From positions 3,312 to 67,311 of the forward strand of contig CAKTYZ010000003.1 in assembly GCA_934635225.1 (NCBI GenBank): 64,000 bases of DNA, given 5' to 3'. The notes beneath the pieces are model-generated. The model made no database searches, was not told the origin of the DNA, and was given only the letters and a program-made list of their open reading frames with translations. A program made the translations under genes and the position numbers. The stretch comes from an uncultured Kiritimatiellota bacterium. GTDB lineage: Bacteria; Verrucomicrobiota; Kiritimatiellia; RFP12; UBA1067. Shown here in pieces: positions 9,246 to 38,869 of this stretch (its first letter is position 1; each line of letters opens with the position of its first letter).

Positions 9246-10781
9246 TCACTTCGAGAGGTCAAGGCGAAAGGCACCGAGCGGCAAGGACGTCTCGGCGTGC
9301 AGCGCCCCGTACCACGGCGCGGAATGAAGATAGCGCACGCCTGTCGGTTGCGGCACGTCGGGGCTTGCGACGACGAGACGGCTTTCGCCGATGAATCCCG
9401 TCTGCACGACTTCGCCCGTCTTCGGGTTCTTCCAGAGCCCCATGTTCGTCAGCTCCGCCTTGTGCCAGCGTCCGTCCGCGTCCCGAAGTTCGAACCCCGT
9501 CGCCATCGAACGGTCATCGTTGTAGACGTACCAGCTCTTCACGTGGGAGAAGGACATCTCGACCCGGCCGCCGTCCAGCTGCCGCCAACCCGTCGGCTTC
9601 GGTGCGTCGGCGACGAGATCCTTGTATCCATAGTTCCGCTGCAGGGCGAGGGCGGCGAGTCGCCGTCCGACAGGCCCTTTCACATTCGGGTGGATGTCTT
9701 TCAGATTGCCGAGGTCGTTGACGACCGCCATCCCGGCGTTCGGCTCCTCGTCCGCGAACTTCGCCTGCGCCTCCTGAAGCGCGGCGATGCCGGGATCGCC
9801 CCACGGCGGAATCTGGACGAACAGGAAGGAGAGCGACGGATTCTCGAACGCCGCCTTCCAGCCGTCATAGAGCGCGTGCATACGGGAGGCGTAGCGGCCC
9901 GGCTCGGTTGAGTTCTGCTCGCCCTGGTACCAGATCGCGCCGCGCAGGGCCATCGGCACGAGCGGCGACAGCATGGAATTCCAGAGGACGGTCGGCTGGT
10001 TCGCGGACTCGCTGAAGGGCCAGCGCCGGAGCTTCGGATCGATTTCCTCCATGACCGGGAAGTCCAGAAGATCCTTCAGGTCGGGGCGCGTCGCGAGCCC
10101 CGCACGCGGCGTCCAGGCGTCAATGTTGCTGGCGCCCTTGACAGCAACGACGATCCCGACAGGAATGTCAAGCGTCGCATAGAGTTCAAGCGCAAAGTAG
10201 TAGGCGACGGCCGAAAGGCCCTTGCGCGAGCCCATGACGACATTGCCGCGATCAATCGGCTGCCAACGGGCCGGGCGTTCCCAACGCGTCCGAGGGCGAA
10301 CGGCATGGCGTTCAGTCGAGACCTCGCAGAAGCGCACGAACGGACGGCTCACATACTGCACGAGCAGACCGCCCTCACGATCACGAAAGCGCATGTTCGT
10401 GGCGTTCCAGATGGCGCACTCCATGTTGCTCTGGCCGGACGCAAGCCAGACCTCGCCGACAAGAACATCCCGCAGGACGCGCCGTTCGCCACCAGCAGAG
10501 ACGACAAGCTCGCGCCCTTCCTTCGAGGCGACAAGCGGCGGCAAGTCGGCGCGCCATTTCCCTTCGGCATCCGCTCGCGCCGCCACGCGTGACCCGGCAA
10601 AGACGACAGAGACCTTCTCGCCGGGTGCCGCACGTCCCCACACCGGGACGGGCCGTCCCCGTTGCAACACCATGCCGTCCGCAAACGGGGCGCCCAGTTC
10701 AAGAGCCCTCGCCGATTCCGCCGCCAAGGCGGATGCGTGAATGGACAACCCCACCACGCCCACCAGCAACCAGTTCTTCAT
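9246..10781 (-). CDS. Secreted sialate O-acetylesterase (SGNH hydrolase, DUF303 family)
   Basis: Signal peptide MKNWLLVGVVGLSIHASALA. The DUF303-type N-terminus ...VLQRGRPVPVWG... carries a GQSNM catalytic motif, followed by an inserted beta-sandwich and the C-terminal part of the SGNH hydrolase domain. The start was set at the internal Met (10781), not at the long ORF. Confidence 0.8.
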   Translation of the reverse strand: MKNWLLVGVVGLSIHASALAAESARALELGAPFADGMVLQRGRPVPVWGRAAPGEKVSVVFAGSRVAARADAEGKWRADLPPLVASKEGRELVVSAGGERRVLRDVLVGEVWLASGQSNMECAIWNATNMRFRDREGGLLVQYVSRPFVRFCEVSTERHAVRPRTRWERPARWQPIDRGNVVMGSRKGLSAVAYYFALELYATLDIPVGIVVAVKGASNIDAWTPRAGLATRPDLKDLLDFPVMEEIDPKLRRWPFSESANQPTVLWNSMLSPLVPMALRGAIWYQGEQNSTEPGRYASRMHALYDGWKAAFENPSLSFLFVQIPPWGDPGIAALQEAQAKFADEEPNAGMAVVNDLGNLKDIHPNVKGPVGRRLAALALQRNYGYKDLVADAPKPTGWRQLDGGRVEMSFSHVKSWYVYNDDRSMATGFELRDADGRWHKAELTNMGLWKNPKTGEVVQTGFIGESRLVVASPDVPQPTGVRYLHSAPWYGALHAETSLPLGAFRLDLSK

Positions 10782-10797
10782 TTTTTTCCTTTTTGTC

Positions 10798-12858
10798 CTA
10801 TCGGATGACGATCGCCAAGCCGGCCCTTGACGCGGCAAACGTGAGACGCTTGCGGTCGGCCGACAGGTGCAGCCTGCAGCGTTCGGGCAGGGCCTTGCGC
10901 CACTCGGCCAGCGTCGCGTCCGAGATCTCAATCTCCGTCTCGTCGTTCCGCACGAGTTCGCACCGATGGTTCTTCGACTCGGGCAGGAGACCGACGTTCT
11001 CAAAGCGAACCTTCGTGCCGTCCGCAAAGCGCCACTTCCCCATGCCGACGCCATGCAGCGGCGCCTTCTCGCAGACGCCATCCGCAAAGTCGAAGACGAC
11101 CTCGCCCGCCGACAGGACGTTGCCAGTTCCGTCGACCCTGATCTCAGGCGACGTCCCCTTGAGGACCAGCTTGTTCTGCGTCTGGCTGTGCGCCAGCGCG
11201 AAGTAGCCCACCTCAATCGTGCCGTTCGAGACGATGAGCGTGTTGCCGGACGAGCCGTTCACGCCAACCTGCAGATGGTTTACGCTCAACTCGCCGCCCA
11301 GCACCTCAAGTCGCCCGTCACGTCCGCCGACCGCTTCGGTGTTTGCGGCGTAGCCCAGATAGACATAGCCGTAGCGCGTTTCGGAATCCTCCAGACGCTG
11401 TCCGAGAAGCCTGCCGCCCGGCAGGATGCGCAGGACGTTCCCCGTACAGTTTGTGAAGCCGACGTAGACGGTCTGATTTCCATTGCCGACCGTCATCGTC
11501 GCGTTCGCGACCTCGCACAGGTTCGAGGACCCTTCGTAGCCGATCCAGAGCCCCGATCCGTTTTCGGCGACCACGCCACCGTCAACGACACGCAGGACAT
11601 TTCCGCAAGACGCGGCCTTCGCACCGAGGCGAATGGGGCCGACGCTGTCAAAGCGACCGCCCGACGTCACCTCAAGACAGTTCGAAGAGGACATGTTGCC
11701 GATCAGCGTCGAATACCAGGTCGTGTTCGAGACGATGCCGCCGTCTTCAATCAGCACACGCGAGCCGCCATTGGCCGCATTGCCCTGAACGGCATTCGCA
11801 TTGCTCTTATCCCAGAAATCGCCAATGGTCAGCGCCTCGTCCGAGTAGTTCATGCCGCCGCAGACGAGCACGCCGCCAGACGTGACGTGCAGAAGGTTCG
11901 AGACGCTGGCGACGGCATTGCCCTGGTCGTCCACGCTCGTTGACGTCCGCCCGCCGAGATTGACGCCGCGCAAGAATTCGGCCCGCCCGCCGTTCGAGAC
12001 CGTCAGCGACGCCTCGCCGAACCTCTTCGTGCCGACATAGGCCGTCACGGCCGACATCGTGCTGCCCGGCCCGTCCACGACGACCTTCGCGCGGATGCCG
12101 TTCATGAACAGCGGACCGTTCTCAATCGTGAACGTGCCGCCTTCATGGATGCCGAGCCAGGCGTCTTGCCCGCCCTCCGTCGTGACATTCCATCCATTCC
12201 GAACCGTGAACGTCGCGTTGCTGACGGTCGTTCGCGTCCGGTCATTGCCGAAGAACGAGCAAACTTCCGTGTTCGTGAGCGCCGAGCCATTCAGCACGTT
12301 GACCGTCATGTCTTTCGGATTTCCGTTTCCGAAGCTGAGCTGGCCAACGAACGTCGCGCCATCGTCCATCTCGAACGTGCCGAAGTTCGAGTTGTAGGAC
12401 AACATGAAGCGTCCGTTGGCTTTGAAATGCGTGTCCTTCCCCTTGAGGCGGAAGACGTTGCGCTGCTTTCGTACGCCCCAGTTTGACGAGGAAAGCGGGA
12501 CGAAATCCTTTCCGCTGGTGGACTCATACGTTCCCGACAGGAACTCGACCGTCGCGTTGTTCGCGTCGCAGAAGTAGTTCGAGCCGAATGTGAGCGCGCG
12601 GTCCCTGCCGATGTCGAACGTCAGGCGGATGCCGTCTTTGTTCACCGTGACGACATCCGCAAACGTTCCGTCCGCCGCGAGGGTCAGTCCCTCGGCGTCC
12701 GTCTTGAACCAATGGCCGTCTGCGGACGTTTCCGTCCAGTTCGCCGCATCCGCGAGGTCAAGGCCGGCGGCGCCTGACCATTCCCGCCCCGCCGTCGCGG
12801 ACGTGACGCACAGCGCCGCCGAGGCGGCACAGAGAAACGAAATCGAGTTCCTTTTCAT
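10798..12858 (-). CDS. Secreted Gly/Asn/Thr-rich beta-helix repeat protein (autotransporter-associated beta-strand-repeat-like)
   Basis: Signal peptide MKRNSISFLCAASAALCVTSATA. It contains many ~20-aa repeats (VSNG.., TVGNG.., GG.L...). It is a paralog of the 32503-34632 protein, sharing an N-terminal LDLADAANW/TDLSADANW motif and a C-terminal ...AIVIR/...LMILR ending. Confidence 0.55.
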   Translation of the reverse strand: MKRNSISFLCAASAALCVTSATAGREWSGAAGLDLADAANWTETSADGHWFKTDAEGLTLAADGTFADVVTVNKDGIRLTFDIGRDRALTFGSNYFCDANNATVEFLSGTYESTSGKDFVPLSSSNWGVRKQRNVFRLKGKDTHFKANGRFMLSYNSNFGTFEMDDGATFVGQLSFGNGNPKDMTVNVLNGSALTNTEVCSFFGNDRTRTTVSNATFTVRNGWNVTTEGGQDAWLGIHEGGTFTIENGPLFMNGIRAKVVVDGPGSTMSAVTAYVGTKRFGEASLTVSNGGRAEFLRGVNLGGRTSTSVDDQGNAVASVSNLLHVTSGGVLVCGGMNYSDEALTIGDFWDKSNANAVQGNAANGGSRVLIEDGGIVSNTTWYSTLIGNMSSSNCLEVTSGGRFDSVGPIRLGAKAASCGNVLRVVDGGVVAENGSGLWIGYEGSSNLCEVANATMTVGNGNQTVYVGFTNCTGNVLRILPGGRLLGQRLEDSETRYGYVYLGYAANTEAVGGRDGRLEVLGGELSVNHLQVGVNGSSGNTLIVSNGTIEVGYFALAHSQTQNKLVLKGTSPEIRVDGTGNVLSAGEVVFDFADGVCEKAPLHGVGMGKWRFADGTKVRFENVGLLPESKNHRCELVRNDETEIEISDATLAEWRKALPERCRLHLSADRKRLTFAASRAGLAIVIR

Positions 12859-12887: not shown

Positions 12888-15800
12888 TTAGAGGTTGCAC
12901 CACTCATAGGGGTCGTCCGACGCCTCCGGCACGTCCTTGTACATCGGGAACTTGTGGTAGCCCGTGCCGTTCGTGAACGTCGTCCACCCCAGGTTGCACA
13001 TGAGCCGCGCGAGCATCCGCGCCGCCGCACGCCGCGAGATGCGCTGGTGCGGGCTGTCATCGACGTTGAACTTCCAAGGCGGCAGCTGCCAGAAGACGAT
13101 GGCGCCCTTGCCGTGGCGGACGATCTTCAGGGCCGCGTTTCCGGACGGGTCCGCATCCGCAAAGGCGGCGAACGACAGCCTTCCATGCCAGTTGAAGTCG
13201 GCGTTGGACAGTCCGTTCAGGATGACCGCGTCCGGACGTTCAATACGCGTGAAACAACAGTCGTTCGTGTCCACGACCGACAGCGGACGGGGCGACCACG
13301 CCGCGATCTCGTCCTTCGTCAGGCCCAGGGCCAGGACCTGCGCGCCGTCGGCGATGCGCCGGTGCAGGTCGTCCGGCATCGGCGCGCCGGACGAGACGAC
13401 GTAGTCCCGCCCGTTCGCCCAGCACTTCACGCCATAGGCGAAGCCGGCCCTGAACGCCTCGTTGCCGAGAAATTCGGGAACGCCGCGCAGCTCGTCCAGT
13501 CGCAGGTCGCTCCAGACCTTCGCGAGCAGCGTCTTCACGAGCGCGTCGGCATACGGGTCCGGCACGGTGCGCGCCGTCACGTCGAGCTGGCAGAGGAGGA
13601 GCGTGCCGCGCCCCGTGCGGAACTCAAGGAGCGGCGCGTATTCGAGCGCGAAGAGACCGTCCACCAGCGGCCGCCAGTCTCCGACCGCCGGCTTCTCCGG
13701 GATGACGGTGGCGATGCAGCCCCGGTTGTTGGCGCGCCAGACGCGCGTCTGCGCAAATCCCGCCCAGTTCTGCGTGTTGCGGTTCAGCCGGTCTTTCATC
13801 GGCCCGTTCAGGTTCGCCGACACGAGCGTCGACTCGCCCGCCCAGTTCGCAAGGGCCTCGTCGTCGAGAATCCCCAAGCGCGGCGCATCGCGGAAGCGCA
13901 CGAATCCCTGACGCATGCCCCGGTTCTGCACGCGGAAGCCAAGCGATTCGAGCGTCGACTGGGACTGCTCGAAGACGACGACGGCCCGCCCCTTCTCCAC
14001 GAGCGGCAGAAGCGTGCGCTCCCACAGCTCGCGCGTCAGCGTCTCACGCCCGACGGCCACGACGCCCGGCGTCGCCGCCAGAGCCTCCGCCGTCACCGAA
14101 CGGCAGACGACGCCCAGCCGGTCGAATGTCGCCCGCGTGAGGCCCTTCGGGTCATACAGGGCGATCTCGCCGCGCGGGCCCGGCACGGCGGCAACCGCCC
14201 GGACCTTCCGCCGGTCGCGCGTCTGCGAACCGTCCGAGAACGACGTCTCGGCGGCGATCTCGTAGGTGCCGGCGCCCTTCGTCCCGAACGTGAACGGCAC
14301 GTCCGTGCGACGGCCCGGCGCGACGGTCGCAGTGCCCTTGCCGTCGGCGACGCGGACGCCGCCCGACCGGACCGCCCACCGCCACGAGGCCGTGACCGGG
14401 TACGAATGGTCGTTCACGAGCACAAGACGCTGCGAGACGACGCTGTATTCGGCGTAGTTGCGGCGCGCGGCCGTGAAGACGTCGCCGTCGCCGAGGAACC
14501 CGACGGCGGGACGCGACCACTTGCGCTGCGCCTCGCCGTAGGGCGTCAGCGTGTAGGGCGGCTTCGCCGCATCGTCGCCCATCCCCGAAAAGCACCAGTA
14601 GTTGTACATCCCGCCGGAGAAGCTCTCGTTCTCGTAGTCCGGCCGCAGCCCCGGGCGCTTCAGGTCGACGAAGCGATCCTTGAGCGCGCGCTTGCCAGGC
14701 AGGGGGCGGACGTCGATCATCTCGCCCTGGCACCACGGCAGGACGCCGTGCAGCCCCCAGCCGCGAAAGCCCTTCTGCGTCTCGCCCCAGAAGAGGCCCA
14801 TCACGCGGGCCATCGTCGCGCGCTTTGCCAGCACCGCGCCCTTCGCCCCGCCGCGCTGGTAGACCTTCGGCGCGCCGCGAAAGTGCGCATCCTCGCGCGC
14901 ATGGCTGAAGGCCGTCGCCGTGTCGCCCAGCATCGCCGACTCGCCGAAGTATTCAGCGGCGTACTCGTCGGCCCATACCGAGCAGTACGTCGGGGTGTAG
15001 TAGATGAAGTAGGGACGTCGGAAGCTCTGGAACCGGCTCTCGTCCGGTGTGCCGAACTCGACCCAGTTGACGGGCTTCGTGCCGCGCTTGAACCACTCCT
15101 CCATCCAGTCCGCACGCTCCTGGGGCGGCGCCCAGCCGAGGTAGATGTTCGCCGTGTAGAAGTTGCCGAGAAGGCCGGAGTCGTGATTGTAGGCCGGACG
15201 CGTCGGATCGATCTCGTTGATGGCCACCGCGCTCCATTCCGCGCTCTTGCGCGTCTCGCGCTGGTTCTGGTCGTCGGGGATCTTGCAGTCCCCGACGGCG
15301 ATCGGGTCGAGGTCGCTGCCGTACCCCGTCATGTTCATGTTCAGCTTGTAGAGGATCACGCTCGGATGCCGCCGCACGTCACGGATGGCGCTTTCGGCGC
15401 GCTCGCGGAAGATGCGCTGCATCTCCGGGTCCTTGTAAAGCCGATCCCTGTCCATCGGCGCGTCGGAGACTCTCGGCACGCTCGCGCACATCATGAACAT
15501 GCCCTCGATGTCAGCCGCCTCCATCATCTCGTCGTAGTTCGGCGTCGAGGCGGGCGTGTAGCCGGAGTTGCAGTTGAAGCTGTTGTAGCCGAGACCCTTC
15601 GCGTGGCGCGCGAACGCGCGCGCGGCCTTGCGGCAGACGTGCGCCGCCGTGCCGGACGAGTTCCAGTAGAGCAGCGTCGTCAGGTGGAGGGGGCGTCCGT
15701 TCATCAGCACGTCACGTCCCGCGAGGCGCACCTCGCGAAAGCCCGTCTCGTAGGCCGGCACTTCGTCGATGCGCGATCCGTCGGCCGCAAAGACCTCCGT

Positions 15801-16775
15801 CTCGACGCGATAGCGGTTGTGCGCCGCGTCGAAGTCCCACAGCGCCACGTCCGGCCACGGGGAGACGAAGGACAGGCGGCCCTTCGCGTCCGGCGTCAGG
15901 TTCTTGCCCGTGAAGGCGCGCGCCGTCCCCTGGCAGCCTTCGAGCGGCGTCACGCGCACCTTCACGGTGTAGCGACGTTTGGCGTCCAGACCTTCCGTCT
16001 CCGTCACGAAGCGGACGTTCTTCAGGTCGGCGAGCTCGCCCCAAGCGAACGTCGCGCGCGGCCCCTTCGGCACGAGGGCGAGCGTGACGTCACCCGTGAG
16101 GCCACGCGCGTAGTCGAGCCGCTTGGCCTTGACCGCGCCCTTGAAGGTGAGACCGACGCCCATGAAGGCATCGCCCGTCTTCACCATGTAGTCCGGCAGA
16201 TAGCAGATGAGCCGCAGCGCTATCGTCTGCTCGCGGCCCGGCTTCGCGACGTCCGTCAGGTCGATCTCGCCGTTCGGCCACGTGACCACGCCAACCTCCG
16301 CGCCGTCCGCGAAGACCGTGCAGTGCGTGAAGACGTGCGCGAACTTCAGCAGCACGCGATGGCCTTTCGCCTCGACCGGCATCATGAAGGTGCGCCGGTA
16401 CCAGCGGCGCTCGTTCACCTGCGCGGCAAAGGCTTTCGACGACTTCACCTCGTCCGCAAAACGCGGCGCGAAGAACGTCTCCTGATCCTCCGCATGGTCG
16501 CCGGCGCCCGCGCGCGACAGGTAGCCGGGAATCTTCGCCCAGCCCCAGTCGTCTGACGGAATCTCGGTCTCTGGCTCGCCGTCAATGATCGGACGTGACC
16601 GCCAGAGGCCGTTCAGCGAAATCTCCGTCCGGGACGGCAAGACGACCCGTGCCGCGTCGGCGATCGTCTCAGGGTCGCCAGGATACGCCTCCGGCACCGG
16701 CAGGTTGTCGGCCAAGACGCAGAAGACCACTCCCATCGCGGCACCAACCGCAAGAACCCGTTTGCGTTTATGCAT
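12888..16775 (-). CDS. Large secreted glycoside hydrolase, GH2-like (beta-galactosidase/mannosidase superfamily)
   Basis: Signal peptide MHKRKRVLAVGAAMGVVFCVLA. It has a GH2-type N-terminal sugar-binding region (EISLNGLWRSR...DDW..IP) and a TIM-barrel-like region (FREVRLAGRDVLMNGRPLHL). ~1295 aa. Confidence 0.55.
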   Translation of the reverse strand: MHKRKRVLAVGAAMGVVFCVLADNLPVPEAYPGDPETIADAARVVLPSRTEISLNGLWRSRPIIDGEPETEIPSDDWGWAKIPGYLSRAGAGDHAEDQETFFAPRFADEVKSSKAFAAQVNERRWYRRTFMMPVEAKGHRVLLKFAHVFTHCTVFADGAEVGVVTWPNGEIDLTDVAKPGREQTIALRLICYLPDYMVKTGDAFMGVGLTFKGAVKAKRLDYARGLTGDVTLALVPKGPRATFAWGELADLKNVRFVTETEGLDAKRRYTVKVRVTPLEGCQGTARAFTGKNLTPDAKGRLSFVSPWPDVALWDFDAAHNRYRVETEVFAADGSRIDEVPAYETGFREVRLAGRDVLMNGRPLHLTTLLYWNSSGTAAHVCRKAARAFARHAKGLGYNSFNCNSGYTPASTPNYDEMMEAADIEGMFMMCASVPRVSDAPMDRDRLYKDPEMQRIFRERAESAIRDVRRHPSVILYKLNMNMTGYGSDLDPIAVGDCKIPDDQNQRETRKSAEWSAVAINEIDPTRPAYNHDSGLLGNFYTANIYLGWAPPQERADWMEEWFKRGTKPVNWVEFGTPDESRFQSFRRPYFIYYTPTYCSVWADEYAAEYFGESAMLGDTATAFSHAREDAHFRGAPKVYQRGGAKGAVLAKRATMARVMGLFWGETQKGFRGWGLHGVLPWCQGEMIDVRPLPGKRALKDRFVDLKRPGLRPDYENESFSGGMYNYWCFSGMGDDAAKPPYTLTPYGEAQRKWSRPAVGFLGDGDVFTAARRNYAEYSVVSQRLVLVNDHSYPVTASWRWAVRSGGVRVADGKGTATVAPGRRTDVPFTFGTKGAGTYEIAAETSFSDGSQTRDRRKVRAVAAVPGPRGEIALYDPKGLTRATFDRLGVVCRSVTAEALAATPGVVAVGRETLTRELWERTLLPLVEKGRAVVVFEQSQSTLESLGFRVQNRGMRQGFVRFRDAPRLGILDDEALANWAGESTLVSANLNGPMKDRLNRNTQNWAGFAQTRVWRANNRGCIATVIPEKPAVGDWRPLVDGLFALEYAPLLEFRTGRGTLLLCQLDVTARTVPDPYADALVKTLLAKVWSDLRLDELRGVPEFLGNEAFRAGFAYGVKCWANGRDYVVSSGAPMPDDLHRRIADGAQVLALGLTKDEIAAWSPRPLSVVDTNDCCFTRIERPDAVILNGLSNADFNWHGRLSFAAFADADPSGNAALKIVRHGKGAIVFWQLPPWKFNVDDSPHQRISRRAAARMLARLMCNLGWTTFTNGTGYHKFPMYKDVPEASDDPYEWCNL

Positions 16776-16996
16776 CTTTCTTGTTCTTTCCTTTCTGTTA
16801 TTTCCTTCCAAAACGCTCAAAGCCTCCGATTCTACATTCCCTCCGTGTTAAAGCCGTAGGCTTTGATGCCTCGCACCCTCTCGAATGCTCTCGCTCAACA
16901 CATGCGCCGAAGAACCGCAAAGCTTTCGGAGGGGACCTTCGCCGAAGGCGAACCCCAGAGGCCGTCAGGCGGCCCTCGGAGACGTTTTCAAAGAGC

Positions 16997-17010
16997 GGGG
17001 GGGGGGGGGG
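16997..17010. repeat. Homopolymeric G14 tract (poly-C on the coding strand) in the 425-nt intergenic region upstream of the GH2-like gene
   Basis: agagcGGGGGGGGGGGGGGtattgg read directly from the sequence. Confidence 0.9.
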
Positions 17011-17200
17011 TATTGGAACCGTGCGCGAACACGGCAGGAAGCGCCCCGGCCGCAGCCTCGACAACCGCCGCTCCGCCCGCGCTGTTCTCCGCGAAAAAAG
17101 CCCCTCGCCTATTCATATGCAATATTATGCCATAAATCCCGCGTGTTGTGTGAAAAAAATGCACTCGCTCCTTGCCTTTGCAAGTTGATGCCGATGATCG

Positions 17201-32000: not shown

Positions 32001-32494
32001 CATTCGACGCCCTCGACGAAGTTCGTGGGGAGATGGCCCCAGCCGCCCTGCCCCATGACGACCGGACGGTTGTCGAAGCGGTCGAACCAGAGCGGATAGG
32101 CGTTCGTCACGGCGGGCGAGAAGCCGTCCGGCAGCGCCGGCGCGCCCTTCCGCGAGAAGACCGCCGCCGCGCGGCAGCCGCGATGCCCGACGGCGAAGAG
32201 ACCCGCGTCGTCACCGAAGCGCGAGATGTCCGTCAGGAACTTGGAAGCCGCCATCCGCGCCTGTTCGGGCGTCTCGCAGTCCAGAAGCGTCGTGACCGAG
32301 CCGTCCGGCGCGGCCAAGGCCTCGGCCGAGACCTTGCCGAGCAGCCGCAAGTCAGCCTCGACCGTCTGCCGGGCGGACGACACGGAGACCGCCAGCGCAA
32401 GACCGAATAGGACAGCGAACTTTTGCTGTTTTGCGAAGGTACGGGAGGGACGCGCTTGTCGCGTCCGAGGTCTTGCAAGTCCTTCCATCATCAT
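29060..32494 (-). CDS. Giant secreted GH42-like glycosidase paralog 3
   Basis: N-terminal signal-like segment. It shares GGTFIANEHTG, DLRGTW and FMMCQTAIGD... blocks with paralogs 1 and 2, and has a weaker copy of the C-terminal domain. 1144 aa. Confidence 0.5.
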   Translation of the reverse strand: MMMEGLARPRTRQARPSRTFAKQQKFAVLFGLALAVSVSSARQTVEADLRLLGKVSAEALAAPDGSVTTLLDCETPEQARMAASKFLTDISRFGDDAGLFAVGHRGCRAAAVFSRKGAPALPDGFSPAVTNAYPLWFDRFDNRPVVMGQGGWGHLPTNFVEGVEWSARQGFGLFGANYGAPAWVAPGVWNHALGDAIAAYAKRLGVGYLDYPLMAHAENPAWFWNEIPLPYATGKDGAIGPTSLYYFKYAAHGSDWPMPKIADLIDYDNQACARHYARDDHFIAHFGSVEKGSGQAASLPGFVGDEDIVTMREIVGWKPGVSVDLRGTWTLDDGTNPPQPVDAGDPVLLAYASKEDGFTLTRTFDLAGDLGKARYLHLSCGNWHGGISEVGEVTVNGRAAKDLTRRVPLTGDLDICYDLAGLLRVGTNEIALKGLRAPVSYYAFLGADGRFAYPSDDERKNRAFFALSETAAKRVIAYDARRLRANRAGDPAGRPQFMMCQTAIGDLSFDILRRYGGYQHDTGQTQACWAPWCSRYWKTRGDPVSCENGGVPPDVTRLRQMFTQYLMLGNDAVNLLFDPDMFRANGKGAWIESHRAWLDCLGKHDRDEFDICVMRSIRNASRLRDPNPWRLDPSRGVLQATGRVPGLIDPSDLVADRPWTRVKFIMDAATTILTPEEAEAVARFVRAGGTFIANEHTGTHTHLKRNVWPLFAALGLPAQAVLHGGTDPVNCRTFAIGKGRLVCLWSGAWWRTRDDGRKFNFEDPAQVPALGDLLDRLGVPRTSGGAQLKGMRDCFAEVWRSKNGLYDLCLLALMGGTNSVSASPRFHVSGRVGRLVELSAEGHPERPFAQDAENRLTLTDVPLEPFESRVYAALREDAGFAPLYWLKSLARRWYALDPVSPAPKPAVATAAEGRFLPLQGGWTHVESGRAVTLGSYVTMGLDDPAASATFVRRVAIPSAWKGRRVMLKFASQGYVTGLNPRATVKVGGVAVPRTDNLSFRAALPDAGEVTLEVAIDGRLPAGARRYLPSGVHGVFYAEARPQPTETAPLKDFAPGLAGCVRTAFATPATGGRVFLASEAKMNYLLLNGVMLQVPPTMEAVDVTGLLRRDGRPNVLRWWPQCGRDEPDWRTKPPKTVPRAWLELP

Positions 32495-32502
32495 CTCCGT
32501 AC

Positions 32503-34632
32503 TTATCTCAGGATCATCAGGAACGCTTCGCGCGGCACGCGGAGGCTGACCGTCCGCCGGTCGTCCGAGAGCGTGACCCGCGCGCGGGAGGCGTGTCGGC
32601 GCGCGGCGTCCTGGATCCTTTCCAGCGTCTTCTGCGAAATGCGGATGCGCCAGGTGTCGTTTCCGCCGGAATAGCGGAAAAGCGTCGTCTTCACGCCCGT
32701 CCGGCGCACGGCCGAGAAATCGAAGTCGAAGGCCGTGTCATCGCACAAGTGGAGCGCCTGGTTGGACGACTCGACAGGCGCGGTCGCGTAACCGCCCTCC
32801 GGGACCGCGAACGCGAACGTGCACCGGTTCGTGAAGTCGCCGCTGTTGCCGCCCGTGAGCATCAGCTTCGCTCTCGGCCCGAAGAACGAGAAGCGCGAGC
32901 CGCCATCCGTCTCCGAATCGTTCTGGTAATTGGGAAGAAGCGCGTTCGAGACGTGCAGCGTGCCGTTTGAGAGAACAAGTTCAGAATCCAGACCCGACAG
33001 CCGGACGATGGAGCAGGAGACCGATGAGTCCGTGCCGACCCACAGGCGGTTGCCGGCATTCCCCGATGAGCCGATCTCAATCCGGCTCGTCGCATTCGTG
33101 AAGGAACAGCCGTCCAGCCTGACCCAGTTGTTCGAGGCGCGCACGTCCTCGCGCCCAATCAGGATGTCTCCCGACACCTTGAGCGAGGCTCCGTCCGTCA
33201 CCTCGACATGGTTTCCTCGCGATCCCATGTGTCCGACGACAAGGGCGGCGCCCGACCCCGACCCAACCGTCACAACGGCATCGCGTCCGCGCACGACGAG
33301 GGCATTGTCAAAGCTCGGATAGAGCGCACCGCACCTAATGCGATTGTCACACTGAAGCGTGCCGCCCTCCAGGACCTCAAAGACATTTGAGGCCACGAGG
33401 CTCGTCAGGTAGAGCGGCATCTCCCTGTCGTCCGGATGACGCGCCGCCACGAACACGTTCGTCGCCGCAAGCGTCGCCCCGCCATCGACCGTGACGCGGT
33501 TCCAGAGCGACGTCACGCAGCTGTCGCCATATCCCTTGGCCTGGCCGCCCGCCGAGATCGTGTCCACGAAGGACACCGAATTGCTCGTGAAGTGAATCCG
33601 ATTGAAGAGGCCGTTCTGGCCGGCGGTCAGCGGTCGGTCAAAGCCCGAGTAGAAGTTGGAGAACGTCGTCCCCTCGCCGGCGACATACAGGAGATTCGAA
33701 TGCGAATAGCCGTCGCCCACGGCGAGAAGGATGTGGCCGCCCGCGGCATACGCGCCGTCCACGCCGCCCGCAAGGAACCGGGCGCCGCCGACCACGTCCA
33801 TGCGGTTGCCGTGGTTGGCGGATCCGTTCCCGCAACAGCCGATGTAGAACTGCTCCTGGGTGCCGTTCGGGCACATCGAAAGCGTCGCGTTCGAGACGCA
33901 CAGATACGCAGCGCCGCCATCGCGGTAGGCACTGAGGCCGCCGACGCCGAGGTAGCTCACGTTGGAGACGACCGCGCCGTCCGTGACGTACGCCTGCGAC
34001 CGAAAGCCCTGTCCGCCGACAAGAAGCTCGCTTTTGTTCGCGTCAAGCGACGACCCCTCGCCGCGGATGAAGACGCGGCAGTCGTTGCCGCGGCTGTGGA
34101 GACGACCGCGCATCGAGCCGCCGTCCGCAATCGTCAAATGACGCGTGCCGCCATCCTGGAAGTTCAGGTTGCCGACGAAGCGACCGCCGTTTTCAATGGA
34201 CATCGTGCAGCGCCGATAGGCGTTCCAGAACGTCACCTCCAGCGGATTGCCGTTCGTGTCCTCAAACGCGACCGTGCCGTTGCGGATGACGTTCGTGGCG
34301 TTGTTGTGGTCATGGTTGCTGTAGGGCTTCCGGAACGTCAGCGTGTGCCCGCCGAGGTCGAACGTTCGCCGACCGGCATTGCCCGCAAACCACCACGTGC
34401 CGGGGAAGTCGAGGTCGGCCGTCAGCGTCAGCGTGTAATCCGCCGACGGCTGCGCCTTGAAGCCCATCGCCTCGGACGCCTGCGTCGGACGCATCCCGCC
34501 CTCCCAGTTCGCGTCCGCCGACAGGTCTGTCGAGGCGACCCCCGTCCACCAGACGACCGTCGGATCACCCGCCAGCCCCGACACGGCGCCCAGCGCAACG
34601 CATCCGAAAAGAAGGAGAGCCGAAAGGTTCAT
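32503..34632 (-). CDS. Secreted beta-helix repeat protein (paralog of 10798-12858)
   Basis: Signal peptide MNLSALLLFGCVALGAVSGLAG, followed by repetitive GG/VSN/TL beta-strand repeats. The ATG at 34632 is the likely start, although the ORF track extends to a TTG at 34656 through a G11 tract. Confidence 0.55.
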   Translation of the reverse strand: MNLSALLLFGCVALGAVSGLAGDPTVVWWTGVASTDLSADANWEGGMRPTQASEAMGFKAQPSADYTLTLTADLDFPGTWWFAGNAGRRTFDLGGHTLTFRKPYSNHDHNNATNVIRNGTVAFEDTNGNPLEVTFWNAYRRCTMSIENGGRFVGNLNFQDGGTRHLTIADGGSMRGRLHSRGNDCRVFIRGEGSSLDANKSELLVGGQGFRSQAYVTDGAVVSNVSYLGVGGLSAYRDGGAAYLCVSNATLSMCPNGTQEQFYIGCCGNGSANHGNRMDVVGGARFLAGGVDGAYAAGGHILLAVGDGYSHSNLLYVAGEGTTFSNFYSGFDRPLTAGQNGLFNRIHFTSNSVSFVDTISAGGQAKGYGDSCVTSLWNRVTVDGGATLAATNVFVAARHPDDREMPLYLTSLVASNVFEVLEGGTLQCDNRIRCGALYPSFDNALVVRGRDAVVTVGSGSGAALVVGHMGSRGNHVEVTDGASLKVSGDILIGREDVRASNNWVRLDGCSFTNATSRIEIGSSGNAGNRLWVGTDSSVSCSIVRLSGLDSELVLSNGTLHVSNALLPNYQNDSETDGGSRFSFFGPRAKLMLTGGNSGDFTNRCTFAFAVPEGGYATAPVESSNQALHLCDDTAFDFDFSAVRRTGVKTTLFRYSGGNDTWRIRISQKTLERIQDAARRHASRARVTLSDDRRTVSLRVPREAFLMILR

Positions 34633-34633
34633 A

Positions 34634-34644
34634 CCCCCCCCCCC
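34634..34644. repeat. Homopolymeric C11 tract (G11 on the coding strand) ending 1 nt upstream of the beta-helix gene ATG, in the RBS position
   Basis: The minus strand reads aatataGGGGGGGGGGGtATGaacctt. Confidence 0.9.
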
Positions 34645-34751: not shown

Positions 34752-35909
34752 TCATTTGCACGTTATGGTCTTCTTGCGCTTATAGTCATAGCAAAGACAG
34801 TTCTTTTGTCGCAAGTACCGATCTGAATTGTTTCCGACCCGGACGATCTTTATCAGCTTGGAGTTCGTGTCAAACGTAACGAAGTTGAAGCTGTCCTGAC
34901 TTTTCGAGCCTCTGATTCGAACGGAGTCATTCCATTGCGAATTGAGACTGGCGTTCTCAAAGGCGATGCAATACTGGGCCGGATGCCCCTTGATGACGCC
35001 TTGATAGTCATAATGCGAATCTCCGTGCATCCAGCAGATGAAATCTCCTCCAGACGAAATAAAGGCATCCACCTCTTGAACGAACTTCATCATGCTGTGA
35101 CCGCCATTGTAAGGCTTTAAGTCAATGCTGTTGAAGGTGTTGTTCTCCGAATCCTGAATCACTTCAAACGGAAAATGCTTTGCGGCGACAACGGAGAGGC
35201 CTTTCTCCTTCGCGTCCGAAAGCGCCTGTGCAAACCAATGAAGCTGCTCGTCGCCCGTGTCTTTCGGAACGAACATGCAGTCCAGAACGATGAGCCTCAC
35301 CTTGGCCTCCGCATAGTCCTTGTAATACCAGCAAAAGCCCTTTTCCTCGGCATCAACGGGCTGGACGACGCCCCAGCTTCCTATATGGGGCTGAAAGTAC
35401 CTAACGTAAGACTCCTTCCCGGAATGATACGACCAGTCCGCCTCGCTCAGGCTGCTATTGAGGGTGTCGTGATTCCCGATGGTCTTCAGAATCTTTTCCG
35501 TGCCTTCAATGCCGTCCCAGAAGTCCATGGGGTCTGCAAACGAAGATGGAACCATATCGCCAAGGCAGAGCATGTCGTCGATGTAGCGCCCGTACTCACG
35601 CGAGAAGTCGACGTATCTCTTCAGGTTTTCCTTGCAGCCATGAATGTCCGTAAAGACAGACAGGGTGCAAAGCCGATGGGACAGGACCAGGTTGCTTGAA
35701 TAGGGCCTTGTCGACTGCAGGATGAGGTTCCCCACGGTCTGCCTGTCATTTAAGTGGAAGACGGAAGATTTCCCGTCGGCAAGATCGCCCGACAGGCCCG
35801 CCAGAGACGACGGCTTTCCGTCCGAAGCGCAGAGCGGCGCGGCGGCGAACGACGCCGTGCCGACGATAAACGACTTTCTCGTGACCTCGCTCATCTTTTC
35901 TATCGCCAT
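34752..35909 (-). CDS. Calcineurin-like metallophosphoesterase, probably secreted
   Basis: GDMV, GNHD and WMHGDSHYDY motifs. The N-terminus ...TRKSFIVGTASFAAAPLCAS resembles a Tat/Sec signal. GC is lower (~50%) than in the flanking genes. Confidence 0.7.
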   Translation of the reverse strand: MAIEKMSEVTRKSFIVGTASFAAAPLCASDGKPSSLAGLSGDLADGKSSVFHLNDRQTVGNLILQSTRPYSSNLVLSHRLCTLSVFTDIHGCKENLKRYVDFSREYGRYIDDMLCLGDMVPSSFADPMDFWDGIEGTEKILKTIGNHDTLNSSLSEADWSYHSGKESYVRYFQPHIGSWGVVQPVDAEEKGFCWYYKDYAEAKVRLIVLDCMFVPKDTGDEQLHWFAQALSDAKEKGLSVVAAKHFPFEVIQDSENNTFNSIDLKPYNGGHSMMKFVQEVDAFISSGGDFICWMHGDSHYDYQGVIKGHPAQYCIAFENASLNSQWNDSVRIRGSKSQDSFNFVTFDTNSKLIKIVRVGNNSDRYLRQKNCLCYDYKRKKTITCK

Positions 35910-35984
35910 GTTTCAGTTTCCTATATGCATTATACCATACATTCGATTTTTCCGTCAATCACGCCTCCGCACTGGGGCAGGGTC

Positions 35985-37712
35985 CTAAGAATTCTCAATC
36001 TTCAGCACGAACGGCAACGTCGCGTTCGCGAGGCGCGGCGGGAGGCGAACGACCATCTTCGTCCCGTCGCGGCGGGCAGACAAGGCCTCCGTCTCGCCGA
36101 GGGCTGTGACGCACGCGCCCGACGGGATTTCGCAGTCGAGCGCGATTTCCGCCGCCGGCTCCTTCACGATGGCGTAGATCGCCTTCCCGTCCTTCGCCCG
36201 CGTGTAATCGACGGCCGACGTCGAGAACGGCGCGACGATGCGCGTCGCGTAGATCGCCTCGCCGTTCTTCTCCAGCCAGCGTCCGATCGAGAGAAGCCGC
36301 GCCTCCTGCACCTCCGGAATCGCGCCTTGCGCGTCAAGATTGACGAGCAGGAGCAGGTTTCCGCCACGCGCGACGATGGACGTGAAATGGCAGATGAACT
36401 CCCCGTCCGTCATCACCATCGACGGATCAAGCTCCTCCATCCAGTGGTTGCCGTAGGCCTTCGAGATGCCGGAGCACGATTCCCACGGATGCCACGTCTT
36501 CGGGTCGATGTTCTCCGCCGTGTCGCCCCACTCGTCCGTGAAGAAGTCGCCGCGCACCGTCCGGCAGCCGATGAGCCGGATGCCCTTGCGCGCGAAGGCC
36601 GCCTCCTCGGACGGGTCGAGCCGCCCGTAGCGGTCGTTGCAGCAGACTTCCTTGCGTCCTTCCGCCTTGTTGTAGAAGTAGGCGGTTATGTCGTAGGATC
36701 CGTTCTCCGTCGCCCGCGTCGCCCAGTCCGCGTCGTACCAGAGGATGTCAGGGTCATACTTGTCGATGAACGCCGTCATCTGCGGCACGATGTACTCGCG
36801 GACGAAGTCCCGGACGGCGATTTTCCCGGACGACTTGCCCTCCATCTCCGGCGTGTAGTCTGCGACCTTGCCGCCCCAGACCTTCATCCGGATTGAGCCG
36901 TCGTCCTGAAGGATCGGATACTCCCATTCGTCCGCCTGCGAGTTGTAGACGCCGAACTTCAGCCCCTCGGCCCGCGCCGCGTCCGCCATCTCCCGCGCGA
37001 AGTCGCGCTTCGCTGGGCCGTCCGCCGAATTGCGGAACGTGAACGGATCGTCCCAGAGGCAGAAGCCCGAATGGTGCTTGAGGAACGGCACGACGTATTT
37101 CGCGCCGCACCGGCGGAAGACCTTCATCATCTTCGCCGCGTCGAACCGCTCGCCGCGAAAGAGGCCGATGAAATGGTCGGGCTTGAAGTCCGCGCCCCAG
37201 TTCTTGCGGTGATACGCCGCCGCGCTGTCGGCCGCCGCGTATTCGGGGCGGCACTTGTACTCGTACCAGTCCGGATAGAGCCGCGCCCCCTTCGCATACG
37301 GCGAGTAGGCGGCGACCGACCAAGGTCCCCAATCGACGAACATGCCGAGCTTCGCGTCGATGAACCATTCGGGGCAGGCGTGACGATCCATACCGGCGCC
37401 GGTCGCGGCGTATTTCCCGGCGCGATTGACGGCGTTCACCTTCTCCACCTGCGCCCGGGCGCGCGCGATCGTCTCCGCCGAATGGTCGCGGGCGATCTCC
37501 GGCAGCGTCTTCGGGAACGGCGGCGCCGGCTTCCAGCCCGGCGGACGGCGATACTTCGCAGGCGCAGTCGGCACGCCCCCCGCGACCGCCGACCGCCCCT
37601 TGAACTCGTCCGTGAACGCGGCGTTGTCCGCCGGGGCCAGCGTCGTGTCGGCCAGCGTCACCTGCGCCAGCACGCCAACGGACAAGGCGGCAAGAGGAAC
37701 GTCAATCATCAT
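35985..37712 (-). CDS. GH29 alpha-L-fucosidase (secreted)
   Basis: Signal peptide, then the GH29 motif AKLGMFVDWGPWSVAAY and ...YVVPFLKHHSGFCLWDD. The ATG overlaps the regulator's TGA as ATGA. Confidence 0.85.
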   Translation of the reverse strand: MMIDVPLAALSVGVLAQVTLADTTLAPADNAAFTDEFKGRSAVAGGVPTAPAKYRRPPGWKPAPPFPKTLPEIARDHSAETIARARAQVEKVNAVNRAGKYAATGAGMDRHACPEWFIDAKLGMFVDWGPWSVAAYSPYAKGARLYPDWYEYKCRPEYAAADSAAAYHRKNWGADFKPDHFIGLFRGERFDAAKMMKVFRRCGAKYVVPFLKHHSGFCLWDDPFTFRNSADGPAKRDFAREMADAARAEGLKFGVYNSQADEWEYPILQDDGSIRMKVWGGKVADYTPEMEGKSSGKIAVRDFVREYIVPQMTAFIDKYDPDILWYDADWATRATENGSYDITAYFYNKAEGRKEVCCNDRYGRLDPSEEAAFARKGIRLIGCRTVRGDFFTDEWGDTAENIDPKTWHPWESCSGISKAYGNHWMEELDPSMVMTDGEFICHFTSIVARGGNLLLLVNLDAQGAIPEVQEARLLSIGRWLEKNGEAIYATRIVAPFSTSAVDYTRAKDGKAIYAIVKEPAAEIALDCEIPSGACVTALGETEALSARRDGTKMVVRLPPRLANATLPFVLKIENS

Positions 37713-38869
37713 TTCTTCCCTTTCTTCTTCTGCTGTTTCGTTTTCGACTTCTTCAGCGACTGCGTCCGGGCCGCCGCGCCCTCGGGACGACGCGTCGAGG
37801 CGCGCACGACAAGGGGCGCCGGCAACAGGATCTCCGTCGGCGGCAGCGTCGGGTTCACGAGCCGCCGGAGGAGTCGGTCGAACGCGGTCTCGGCGATGAG
37901 GTCACACGGCTGGTGGATCGTCGTGAGCTGCGGCGTCATGACGCACGCCGTGCTCGTGTCGTCGAATCCCGCTAGAAGGATGTCGTCCGGCACGCGCAAC
38001 CCCAGCCCATCCAGCGTGTTCTTGAGGAGCGCCGCCGTGAGGTCCGTGCCGCAGACGATCGCGTCCGGCCTGTGCCGACGCAGGTACCGCCGAATCGCCG
38101 CCGCGTCTTCGGGCTGCGCATCGATCACGCCGCCCTCGGACGCGGCGCCCCTCATCCGCAGCGCGTTCATCACGCCGTTGACGCGCCGGTACATGTTCGC
38201 CGAGCGGTCGGCGTGCATCAGGAAGCGAATGTCCCGCGCGCCCGCCGCGAGCAGGTGTTCGGCGAGACGGCCACCGGCCGACTCGTTGTCGATGCCCACA
38301 AGGTCATAGTCGCTGCGGCGCGGCGGCTTCACGAAGTCGCAGTCGATCAGCACGACCGGCACCTGCGCGTCCGCGAAGACGGACAGGACCTCGCGATTGC
38401 ACGCCTCCGAGTCCGTCACGAACTCCAGCGGCTGATAGATGACGCCGGAAACGCCCTCGCGGACGATCGTCTCGGCGAACCGCTTCGCCTGCTCAACGCG
38501 GGCCGTCGCGCCCTTCGCGGAAACGTCGCCGAAGAGCAGCGTCCGCTCCGCCTTCTGCGCACAGCGCGAGACGCCGCTCACGAGGGCGGAGAAGAAGTCC
38601 GAGTAGGCGACGCCCGGCACGATAAGCCCGACGGGACCGGCGCCGCGCTGCGCACTCTTCGACAGGAACGTGCCCTTGCCGCGCCGCCGCACGAGGAAGC
38701 CCTTTGCGCTCAAGTCCTGCAGGGCCTGGGCGACGACCGAGCGCTTGACGCCAAAGCGCCGCGCGAGTCCACGTTCGCTCGGGAAGGGATTCGCCGCCGC
38801 GAGGTACTTTCCGCTAAGGATTTCCTTTCGCAGGGTCGTGATGATCAGGCTTGTCTCATTGGCTTTCAT
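37709..38869 (-). CDS. Transcriptional regulator with a GntR-type wHTH N-terminus fused to a LacI-like periplasmic-binding-fold sensor domain
   Basis: ...PFPSERGLARRFGVKRSVVAQALQDLSAKGFLVRRRGKGTFL is a GntR HTH. A LacI/PBP-like domain follows (GLIVPGVAYSDFF...), and the protein ends in a Lys-rich tail. It sits at the head of the glycan locus. Confidence 0.75.
   Translation of the reverse strand: MKANETSLIITTLRKEILSGKYLAAANPFPSERGLARRFGVKRSVVAQALQDLSAKGFLVRRRGKGTFLSKSAQRGAGPVGLIVPGVAYSDFFSALVSGVSRCAQKAERTLLFGDVSAKGATARVEQAKRFAETIVREGVSGVIYQPLEFVTDSEACNREVLSVFADAQVPVVLIDCDFVKPPRRSDYDLVGIDNESAGGRLAEHLLAAGARDIRFLMHADRSANMYRRVNGVMNALRMRGAASEGGVIDAQPEDAAAIRRYLRRHRPDAIVCGTDLTAALLKNTLDGLGLRVPDDILLAGFDDTSTACVMTPQLTTIHQPCDLIAETAFDRLLRRLVNPTLPPTEILLPAPLVVRASTRRPEGAAARTQSLKKSKTKQQKKKGKK

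Follow-up and report, generated by a model that had tools for sequence, protein, structure and literature searches.

A carbohydrate-active enzyme gene cluster with predicted beta-solenoid and giant clan GH-A-type proteins in a human-gut Kiritimatiellota bacterium

Overview of the cluster

Positions 9246–38869 of a 64,000-nucleotide (64-kb) stretch of DNA from an uncultured Kiritimatiellota bacterium, here called the window, hold 12 consecutive minus-strand genes over about 30 kb in the layout of open reading frames (ORFs). We number them g1 to g12 along the forward strand, the regulator gene g12 being the first in the direction of transcription. The region is a genuine gene cluster of carbohydrate-active enzymes (CAZymes) from a human-gut Kiritimatiellota and is common to many assemblies of one strain: the 42.6-kb contig ERZ27286941 k141_851571 and several contigs from Hadza and other samples carry the whole run from the regulator gene to rpsA, with the gene order unchanged and the proteins identical. 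Judged by sequence, the cluster appears to comprise two analogous modules, each combining a beta-solenoid protein, very large enzymes of the glycoside hydrolase (GH) clan GH-A type and an esterase of carbohydrate esterase family 20 (CE20). Module 1 would consist of g9, the giants C, B and A (g8, g7 and g5) and g6; module 2 would consist of g2, the GH2-like g3 and g1. The likely accessory genes are the GH92 gene g4, the ClAgl29-type GH29 gene g11 and the putative metallophosphoesterase gene g10. What sets the cluster apart is the solenoid-plus-giant modules, together with several uncharacterised or atypical enzyme families. On balance, we suggest that its products degrade, outside the cell, a glycan with O-acetyl groups and alpha-mannose, which is more likely to come from the diet (plant or fungal) or from microbes than from the host.

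The array had been described in an earlier sequence-only reading as thirteen genes of a locus for host glycans. We confirm a unidirectional array of mostly exported proteins with the gene coordinates given there, and the evidence supports a cluster that encodes secreted enzymes active on glycans and is led by a sugar-type regulator; the density of glycan enzymes is far above chance. The count is 12 rather than thirteen, both in our ORF layout and in public gene calls on independent assemblies of the array. No further gene was found, the 425-nt gap at 16776–17200 holding only one minus-strand ORF of 42 aa. Signal peptides had been claimed for nearly all of the proteins, and 11 of the 12 begin with basic residues and then a hydrophobic segment, as called with a hydropathy heuristic and not with SignalP.

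Giant proteins with a predicted GH42/GH164-type fold

The three giants are encoded on the minus strand by g8 (giant C, 1144 aa, 29060–32494), g7 (giant B, 1265 aa, 25219–29016) and g5 (giant A, 1233 aa, 19494–23195). BLASTP identifies them as true paralogs: A and B share 25% identity over 1149 columns (E = 2e-53), and C matches B at E = 1e-19. Giant C is the most divergent and has no significant Pfam match even at E ≤ 10. The sole Pfam match of the giants is GH42M, above its cut-off in g7 only (35 bits versus 25.8); in g5, GH42M and GH2_N remain below threshold. The catalytic GH42 model, PF02449, has no match in the giants at E ≤ 0.01, a sequence search of the PDB with g7 returned nothing, and a profile of the giant family reaches the N-terminal part of GH42 at only E = 2.4e-4.

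Structure prediction is more informative. An AlphaFold2 (AF2) model of g7 residues 66–1265, built from a 57-sequence alignment, has a predicted local distance difference test (pLDDT) score of 93 and a predicted template modelling (pTM) score of 0.93. In a Foldseek search of the PDB with this model, the top 15 matches are all GH42 beta-galactosidases (E = 7e-20 to 3e-18), with target template modelling (TM) scores of 0.63–0.69 at about 12% identity. They are followed by the beta-1,2-glucosyltransferase IaSGT (7x87 and the 7vk entries) and then by a GH164 beta-mannosidase. Comparison of the family profile with the PDB gives the domain order of g7. The N-terminal half of a GH42 barrel is interrupted by an inserted GH2_N-like jelly-roll, after which the barrel is completed; next come a GH42M-type domain and a beta-sandwich, and the C-terminus is formed by two jelly-rolls that are again GH2_N-like. 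An N-terminal alpha/beta domain is also present.

Two glutamates are candidates for the catalytic pair. Glu317, in the motif HPxGE, is at least 90% conserved and follows strand 243–252 of the model; Glu607, in TSELAGP, is invariant and follows strand 539–541. In the model both would lie just after the strands that carry the acid/base and the nucleophile in clan GH-A. Both are kept in giants A and B. In giant C the glutamate at the nucleophile position is retained (SCENGG) and the acid/base position aligns to an aspartate.

The model thus points to a GH42/GH164-type fold for a family that stands, at the sequence level, apart from GH42. Of the earlier description of three giant GH42-like paralogs, the paralogy and the fold hold, and membership of the GH42 sequence family does not. 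The giants resemble the GH42 beta-galactosidases and alpha-L-arabinopyranosidases and the GH164 enzymes of clan GH-A in their three-domain fold of TIM barrel, trimerisation domain and beta-sandwich (Foldseek E = 1e-19 to 1e-16, TM 0.6–0.69), in the GH42M-type domain and probably in the glutamates at the expected strand ends. In contrast to these enzymes, they are twice as long; a jelly-roll interrupts their barrel, an alpha/beta domain lies at the N-terminus and a further two jelly-rolls lie at the C-terminus. They occur as two or three tandem paralogs and are exported, GH42 enzymes being typically cytoplasmic.

A phmmer search of 1.84 billion representative sequences places 276 proteins in the giant family at E ≤ 1e-3, and the full-length relatives among the matches listed are nearly all about 1,250–1,350 aa long. 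Every named match is a ‘hypothetical protein’, from Kiritimatiellia, Victivallales, Lentisphaeraceae and, in one case, Capsulimonadaceae. The Capsulimonadaceae member comes from a soil metagenome-assembled genome (MAG), and the Lentisphaeraceae and Victivallales members come from MAGs of unstated habitat. In the literature on new GH families near GH42 and GH164, we found nothing specific to the giants.

Gene neighborhoods of giant relatives

To place the modules in context, nine distinct contexts of giant-B relatives were compared, the window included, at 34–98% identity. More than one giant paralog is present in eight of the nine. A solenoid neighbor occurs in six, and again beside giant C in L016; solenoids of the g9 family adjoin giants in L001, L003, L004, L005, L006 and L016. 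Esterases acting on acetyl or other carbohydrate esters (CE20, GDSL, AXE1 or BD-FAE) are found in five contexts. GH92 is found in four, the three outside the window (L003, L006 and L018) encoding proteins with 57–86% identity to g4. From these neighborhoods, the recurrent partners of the giants are other giants, the solenoid, an acetyl-type esterase and GH92, and the conserved core appears to be a solenoid plus two or three giants.

The more divergent contexts vary around this core. With giant B at 63% identity, L004 has the order solenoid, giant B, giant A; L006 (55%) has the same three genes followed by one gene and a GH92 (70% identity to g4). In L018 (50%) a GH92 (57%) and an AXE1 esterase adjoin giant B, and L001 (also 50%) reads giant, solenoid, GDSL fragment, giant B, CE20 (44% to g6). 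L019 (43%) has a GntR/periplasmic binding protein (PBP) regulator, giant B and a CBM4_9 protein. In L020 (41%) the order is giant A, GH127, giant, BD-FAE esterase, giant B, GH2 and GH42, and L007 (34%) has three giants. Both modules are adjacent again in L016, where a solenoid, a g3 ortholog (52%) and a CE20 gene are followed by a solenoid and giant C (60%); the g2 ortholog there adjoins the g3 ortholog.

Closely related strains differ at the edges. L002 and L005 are 98% identical over g9–g5, and in both a GDSL esterase gene follows giant A, replacing GH92-g3-g2-g1. It encodes 487 aa in L002 (13106–14569) and is a 1024-aa GDSL/GH31-like ORF in L005 (16017–19091). In L003, g10 comes after a GH92 gene (86% to g4) instead of the g11–g12 of the window. 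Because the flanking genes differ between the near-identical strains L002, L003 and L005, we consider the flanks mobile and the core stable.

Other features of these loci were also recorded. L005 has an extra ORF of 252 aa without a Pfam match between giant B and the CE20 gene (9494–10252). A 509-aa protein with sigma-70 regions 2 and 4 precedes the giant-B ortholog of L018 (8444–9973). The regulator before giant B in L019 (7975–9024) is a GntR/Peripla_BP_3 hybrid and echoes the AraR-type regulator g12. The L004 contig (CAVCJC010000009.1) is labelled Lachnospira hominis and has 53% GC, with giant B at 63% and giant A at 61% identity. All other labelled giant relatives are assigned to Kiritimatiellota, Lentisphaerota or Capsulimonadaceae, and the L004 contig is probably mis-binned.

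The solenoid proteins

Two secreted proteins, g9 (709 aa, 32503–34632, minus strand) and g2 (686 aa, 10798–12858, minus strand), belong to a solenoid family that the sequence-only reading had passed over. The AF2 model of g9 is a right-handed beta-solenoid, nearly all beta, with a pLDDT score of 86.6. Neither protein has a significant Pfam or NCBIfam match, even at E ≤ 10, and the g9 family is small, with 16 homologs. g2 is related to g9 by BLASTP at E = 4e-4, with the C-terminus in common, and is 26% identical to it in the family alignment.

Foldseek matches of the g9 model are weak (E ≥ 2.6e-3, TM ≤ 0.3) and fall on autotransporter passengers and tailspikes. Since these matches are insignificant, they neither support nor rule out an enzymatic beta-helix of the polysaccharide lyase (PL), GH28 or GH110 kind. 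With the passengers Ag43, EspC and TibA and with phage tailspikes, g9 shares a long right-handed beta-solenoid. It differs from them in a family-specific C-terminus ending in arginine, and no catalytic likeness was detected. No Pfam domain of an autotransporter translocator was found in g2 or g9, and no beta-barrel is evident in the secondary structure of the g9 model, which consists of the solenoid and a small helix-strand element at the C-terminus.

The C-terminus carries the motif ...LS.D...L.LRV...GL.I.VR-COOH, always Arg-terminated, in 15 of the 17 aligned solenoid members; the other two appear truncated. In the window, the conserved C-termini are encoded at 32503–32560 (g9) and 10798–10860 (g2). 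The motif could be a lineage-specific sorting or anchoring tag.

The CE20 esterases

The sequence-only reading had named two sialate O-acetylesterases. Both g6 (23192–25201, minus strand) and g1 (9246–10781, minus strand) contain the Pfam SASA domain (2e-17 and 2.5e-13, respectively), and both have CE20 matches in the PDB at 1e-48 to 1e-62. CE20 enzymes have an SGNH/SASA domain between N- and C-terminal beta-sandwiches, and one subgroup has an ancillary beta-sandwich inside the SGNH domain (PMC12313940). g6 is of this kind: it matches 9h4u (2.3e-62), 7kmm (8.2e-58) and 9ega (3.7e-56) over its full length, residues 18–654 aligning with residues 9–638 of 9h4u, and its end-to-end relatives, ancillary insert included, are Fl8CE20_II, XacXaeA and PpCE20_II. 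g1 lacks the insert; it aligns with 9ega (1.3e-60) in two stretches that skip chain residues 217–380, the ancillary domain. The catalytic serine and histidine are kept in both, in GQSN at 121 (Ser124) and DIHP at 528 (His530) of g6 and in GQSN at 116 (Ser119) and DIHP at 362 (His364) of g1.

By these sequence criteria g6 and g1 are best described as CE20 esterases, g6 resembling XacXaeA, Fl8CE20_II and PpCE20_II over the whole length and g1 over the core. The comparison does not support the sialate specificity. Sialate O-acetylesterases are usually linked with a sialidase or with sialic-acid catabolism, and a Pfam search of the locus and the window found no GH33 sialidase and no nan genes. The match of g1 to the mammalian sialate O-acetylesterase SIAE (8f9r) is only 1.4e-24, about 35 orders of magnitude worse than its match to 9ega. 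Bacterial CE20 members with proven substrates deacetylate xylan and xyloglucan oligosaccharides, which are plant hemicelluloses (PMC12313940, PMC8245568), and these are the nearest characterised bacterial relatives. Unlike g6 and g1, whose neighbors are of other kinds, the characterised members adjoin xylan or xyloglucan enzymes (PMC12313940).

The GH2-like protein g3 and the accessory enzymes

In module 2, the place of the giants would be taken by g3 (1295 aa, 12888–16775, minus strand), a secreted protein with no sequence similarity to them. It is a distant GH2 relative within its first 600 residues, followed by a 700-aa C-terminal extension. A phmmer search of the PDB finds beta-glucuronidase and LacZ at 7e-9 to 3e-8 (residues 121–582); in Pfam the relation is marginal, Glyco_hydro_2_C scoring 22.1 bits (cut-off 21) and GH2_N 19.7 bits (cut-off 28). 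The N-E pair that holds the GH2 acid/base is N481-M482 in g3 (LNMNM, residues 478–482, window 15329–15343). Thirteen g3 relatives likewise have N-[MAKR] instead of N-E, which bona fide GH2 enzymes in the same alignment keep, and the nucleophile E573 is invariant in the g3 family. The loss of the acid/base suggests an atypical mechanism or a non-hydrolytic role. The earlier label of a GH2-like enzyme is therefore borne out only as a remote and marginal relation, and the removal of galactose proposed in the same reading is not supported by a protein without the GH2 acid/base glutamate.

The assignment of g4 (17201–19465, minus strand), a secreted protein, as a GH92 alpha-mannosidase is unambiguous, with Pfam GH92 at 7.6e-150 and GH92N at 1e-50 covering the full length, both the N-terminal beta-sandwich and the (alpha/alpha)6 catalytic domain. 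Its best PDB match, again over the whole length, is 7zgm (8.8e-175), and 14 GH92 structures match at E ≤ 1e-37. 7ZGM is the Bacteroides massiliensis GH92 alpha1,3-mannosidase that acts on the xylosylated core of plant N-glycans (PMC9522356). It is the closest solved homolog of g4; in contrast to that pathway, no PNGase or other plant N-glycan enzyme is found near g4.

g11 (35985–37712, minus strand) encodes a secreted GH29 protein (Pfam Alpha_L_fucos, 1.3e-70) that had been called a fucosidase. Its best PDB matches are 7xsf and 7xsg (ClAgl29A and ClAgl29B of Cecembia lonarensis) at 3e-93 and 2e-89; the Thermotoga maritima fucosidase (TmaFuc) follows at 8e-47. His34 in TmaFuc numbering binds the axial O4 and is invariant in alpha-L-fucosidases (PMC9774334). 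In the HMMER alignment, FIHWG of TmaFuc corresponds to FLDWG in ClAgl29A/B and to FVD127WG in g11. Further clade markers in g11 are YPD148WYE, VPF209, WESC413 and Leu455 at the position of TmaFuc Asn324. All five markers of the ClAgl29 type (His34 to Asp, Asp139, Phe195, Cys418 and the absence of Asn324) are thus present in g11, and Phe425 is replaced by tyrosine. The nucleophile is kept as the aspartate of LWYD, which aligns with T. maritima Asp224 of LWND.

Because aspartate occupies the His34 position and the other markers are shared, the fucosidase label is unsafe. The GH29 family assignment stands, and the alignment places g11 in the ClAgl29 alpha-L-glucosidase clade rather than among canonical alpha-L-fucosidases. 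A GntR-family regulator lies nearby in both organisms (PMC9774334). The two differ in the tyrosine of g11 and in setting, g11 lying in a polysaccharide-type cluster and not beside L-glucose catabolic genes. To our knowledge, ClAgl29A and ClAgl29B are the only alpha-L-glucosidases described.

The phosphoesterase noted earlier is g10, a secreted protein of 385 aa (34752–35909, minus strand). It has the motif series of calcineurin-like metallophosphoesterases (DxH, GD, GNH[DE], H, GHxH) in order and with typical spacing, as DIHG88, GD117, GNHD145 and HGDSH295. Significant matches were not obtained: Pfam and NCBIfam gave none even at E ≤ 10, the best Pfam candidate being PhoD-like at E = 0.16, and a PDB sequence search found nothing. 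At 52.5% GC (70% at third codon positions, GC3), g10 is set off from its neighbors (65–75%, GC3 80–92%), and it is 97% conserved in L003, directly after GH92. The segment at 34752–35984 looks like a separately acquired cassette.

Regulator, gene junctions and transcription units

The cluster is headed by g12 (37709–38869, minus strand). Pfam identifies GntR (5.2e-13, residues 11–69), Peripla_BP_3 (6.3e-28) and Peripla_BP_1 (2.1e-14), the Peripla_BP_1/3/4 matches spanning residues 81–360, and NCBIfam agrees with an RbsR/PurR-type C-terminal domain. Both domains of the GntR/LacI hybrid that had been proposed are thereby found, and the domain order points to an AraR-type architecture, a GntR winged helix-turn-helix (HTH) followed by a LacI-type (PBP type I) sugar-binding domain. 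The g12 stop overlaps the g11 start as ATGA at 37709–37712, as had been noted, and we infer that the two genes are translationally coupled.

The junctions from g10 through g4 measure, in order, 119, 8, 43, 17, −4 and 28 nt. The −4 junction is a second ATGA, where the g6 stop overlaps the g5 start; reading the sequence again confirmed its position at 23192–23195. The g9–g8 junction, given previously as 9 nt at 32494–32503, is tight as stated, with a length of 8 nt (32495–32502).

A sigma-70-like promoter site on the minus strand (35929–35958) lies in the 75-nt gap before g10. It reads TTGACG-18-TATAAT with TG, has 11 of 12 consensus matches and is the best in the scanned region. A similar extended −10 element by consensus match (TGGCATAAT) lies in the 425-nt g4–g3 gap (16776–17200), which also contains a variable C14 tract and is likely a transcription-unit boundary. 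Because a promoter-like site precedes g10 and the 425-nt gap precedes g3, a single operon is unlikely; there are probably at least three transcription units, g12–g11, g10 to g4 and g3 to g1. Apart from the extended −10 elements before g10 and g3, a search for a shared operator or palindrome in the intergenic regions gave trivial matches only. A terminator scan was uninformative, with fewer matches than in shuffled sequence.

The shared orientation carries no information about operon structure, since all genes of the window that have Pfam support are on the minus strand. The cumulative GC skew drops monotonically over 1–64000, and a tRNA-Val gene (60658–60733) is the sole plus-strand gene noted.

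Proposed function and alternatives

We propose that the cluster acts outside the cytoplasm on a complex glycan that is O-acetylated and contains alpha-mannose. The CE20 esterases g1 and g6 would strip the acetyl groups. Backbone or side-chain sugars would be removed by the giants, as retaining enzymes of GH42/GH164 fold with Glu317 and Glu607 as candidate residues, and by the GH92 enzyme. g11 would take off an L-gluco-type sugar, with O4 equatorial, rather than L-fucose, and g10 may remove a phosphate substituent. The solenoids might be surface scaffolds or glycan binders for their partner enzymes. Dietary plant or fungal polymers and microbial exopolysaccharides are more likely substrates than host sialo- or fuco-glycans.

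Several points weigh against this proposal. No close relative of the giants, g3, the solenoids or g10 is characterised, so the sugars removed are guesses. The canonical acid/base residue is missing from g3 and perhaps from giant C; both could be non-hydrolytic or binding proteins. Since strains with 98% identity have different flanks, the 12 genes may not all share one substrate. Pfam finds no linked transporter or cytoplasmic sugar-catabolic gene in the window, the structure closest to g4 works on plant N-glycans, which are unacetylated, and the signal peptides were called by the hydropathy heuristic alone.

In organisation, the cluster resembles the polysaccharide utilization loci (PULs) of Bacteroidota and the CAZyme clusters of other phyla: exported GH and esterase genes are co-oriented and linked to a sugar-sensing regulator, and accessory non-catalytic surface proteins are a likely further parallel. 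A PUL-like organisation without SusC/SusD had been proposed, and Pfam indeed finds no SusC-like TonB-dependent transporter and no SusD-like lipoprotein among the 12 genes or the flanking genes of the window. Bacteroidota PULs differ in having this pair, where the cluster has no TonB-dependent or ATP-binding cassette (ABC) transporter, and in using hybrid two-component, SusR or extracytoplasmic function (ECF) sigma regulators instead of an AraR-type GntR/LacI hybrid such as g12. The candidate binding or scaffold proteins here are beta-solenoids.

We also raise, as a tentative idea, that a solenoid with tandem giants of about 1,300 aa, often accompanied by an acetylesterase and GH92, represents an undescribed extracellular glycan-degrading system centred on Kiritimatiellota and Lentisphaerota. 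The giants would then form a new clan GH-A family with an uncatalogued specificity, the solenoids would be their dedicated scaffold or binding partners, and g11 would hint at a natural glycan with an L-gluco-configured sugar, a compound so far hypothesised.

Of the alternatives, the one that holds up best, though we regard it as unlikely, is that the region is not a single functional unit. The cassettes g12–g11, g10, solenoid-giants-CE20, GH92 and g3-g2-g1 would be chance neighbors on the leading strand, with different substrates. The swapping of flanks among 97–98% identical strains fits this idea, as do the uneven GC content (core 70%, g10 52.5%, flanks 62–66%), the internal promoter-like sites and the 425-nt gap, and the shared direction has no meaning in a window that is co-oriented throughout. 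It is harder to reconcile with the recurrence of GH92 near giants in four distinct contexts, with the adjacency of both solenoid-enzyme-CE20 modules in the divergent L016, and with the tight junctions from g9 through g4 (−4 to 43 nt; g10–g9, 119 nt).

Trimming of a dietary plant N-glycan or hemicellulose is, in our view, quite improbable. GH92 would remove the core alpha1,3-mannose and the other enzymes would act on antennae or hemicellulose decorations. The best argument for it is g4, whose closest solved relative is the B. massiliensis enzyme described above (PMC9522356), and the CE20 relatives act on xylan and xyloglucan (PMC12313940). The giants of L020 sit with GH127, a BD-FAE esterase, GH2 and GH42, and the human hosts are Hadza and Nepali people, whose diets appear to be rich in fibre; Kiritimatiellae also seem to be frequent in the guts of herbivores. 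The cluster nevertheless has no PNGase, endo-GlcNAcase, GH3 or GH5 xylosidase, GH20 or GH130, and families of xylanases, xyloglucanases or mannanases are absent too. N-glycans carry no O-acetyl groups, yet no partner of the giants is more constant than the esterases. The only hint of a plant N-glycan role is thus the closest relative of g4, and such a role leaves the esterases unexplained.

The host-glycan reading held that N-glycans or mucin O-glycans are trimmed by sialate de-O-acetylation and then by removal of fucose, galactose and mannose. We consider it similarly improbable. The organism does live in the human gut, the SASA/CE20 family includes genuine mammalian sialate esterases (PMC12313940), GH92 and GH29 are found in N-glycan PULs (PMC9522356), and the giants share a beta-galactosidase-type fold. 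Host sialo- and fuco-glycan specificity nevertheless fails on four grounds: CE20 proteins far nearer to xylan and xyloglucan esterases than to SIAE; no GH33, GH20, GH18/85, PNGase, GH95 or sulfatase by Pfam in the locus or window; a GH29 protein without the fucosidase-invariant histidine that fits the alpha-L-glucosidases; and a giant family that extends to a soil Capsulimonadaceae MAG and to MAGs of unstated habitat. Finally, since poly-G tracts may arise as sequencing artefacts, we considered that the assembly is chimeric at these sites and rejected the idea, several independent assemblies spanning the tracts with the same flanks.

The breakdown of an O-acetylated, alpha-mannose-bearing glycan is our preferred reading. 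Labelled automatically as sialate esterase, fucosidase and beta-galactosidase-like, the proteins can imply a host-mucin lifestyle, which the residue-level and comparative checks do not back. Several families are targets for enzyme discovery: the GH42-fold family, which is compact and structurally confident, the GH2-like family without the usual acid/base, the solenoid partner family and a gut member of the GH29 alpha-L-glucosidase clade. The identity of the substrate would tell what Kiritimatiellota eat in high-fibre guts.

Genomic context and sequence variation

Kiritimatiellota, which are uncultured, inhabit the guts of non-industrialised human populations. Among genome records, the nearest are MAGs of uncultured Kiritimatiellaeota from the guts of Hadza and Nepali people, at 97–99% identity, and the literature on Kiritimatiellota in connection with mucin, the human gut or the Hadza held nothing specific to these proteins. 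The window has a GC content of 64%; within the cluster, the core (giants and g6) is at 70%, g6 itself at 75% and the flanking cluster genes at 62–68%.

The window contains only three G/C homopolymer runs of at least nine nucleotides, at 9044–9055, 16997–17010 and 34634–34644 (12, 14 and 11 nt), and all three fall in intergenic DNA of the glycan locus. The C14 tract at 16997–17010 has lengths of 12, 12, 13 and 14 across four independent assemblies. The tract at 34634–34644, G11 on the coding strand and directly 5′ of the g9 start, counts 11 G in the window and in L014 and 10 G in L012, L013 and L015. The shorter tract brings an upstream ATG into frame, and the g9 protein called there has 730 aa, against 709 aa with 11 G. 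A 60-nt segment bearing this tract is missing in L003. The length variation may be phase-variation-like behaviour or homopolymer sequencing noise.

The array sits between rpsA (7127–8878) and an island of about 50% GC, which extends over approximately 39800–47650 directly upstream of g12. The island encodes a PDZ-domain protein, Fic, RadC, an NgoFVII-type restriction endonuclease, a C5 cytosine methyltransferase and an AbiEi-type antitoxin, and it is retained in other assemblies of the same strain (L012–L014).

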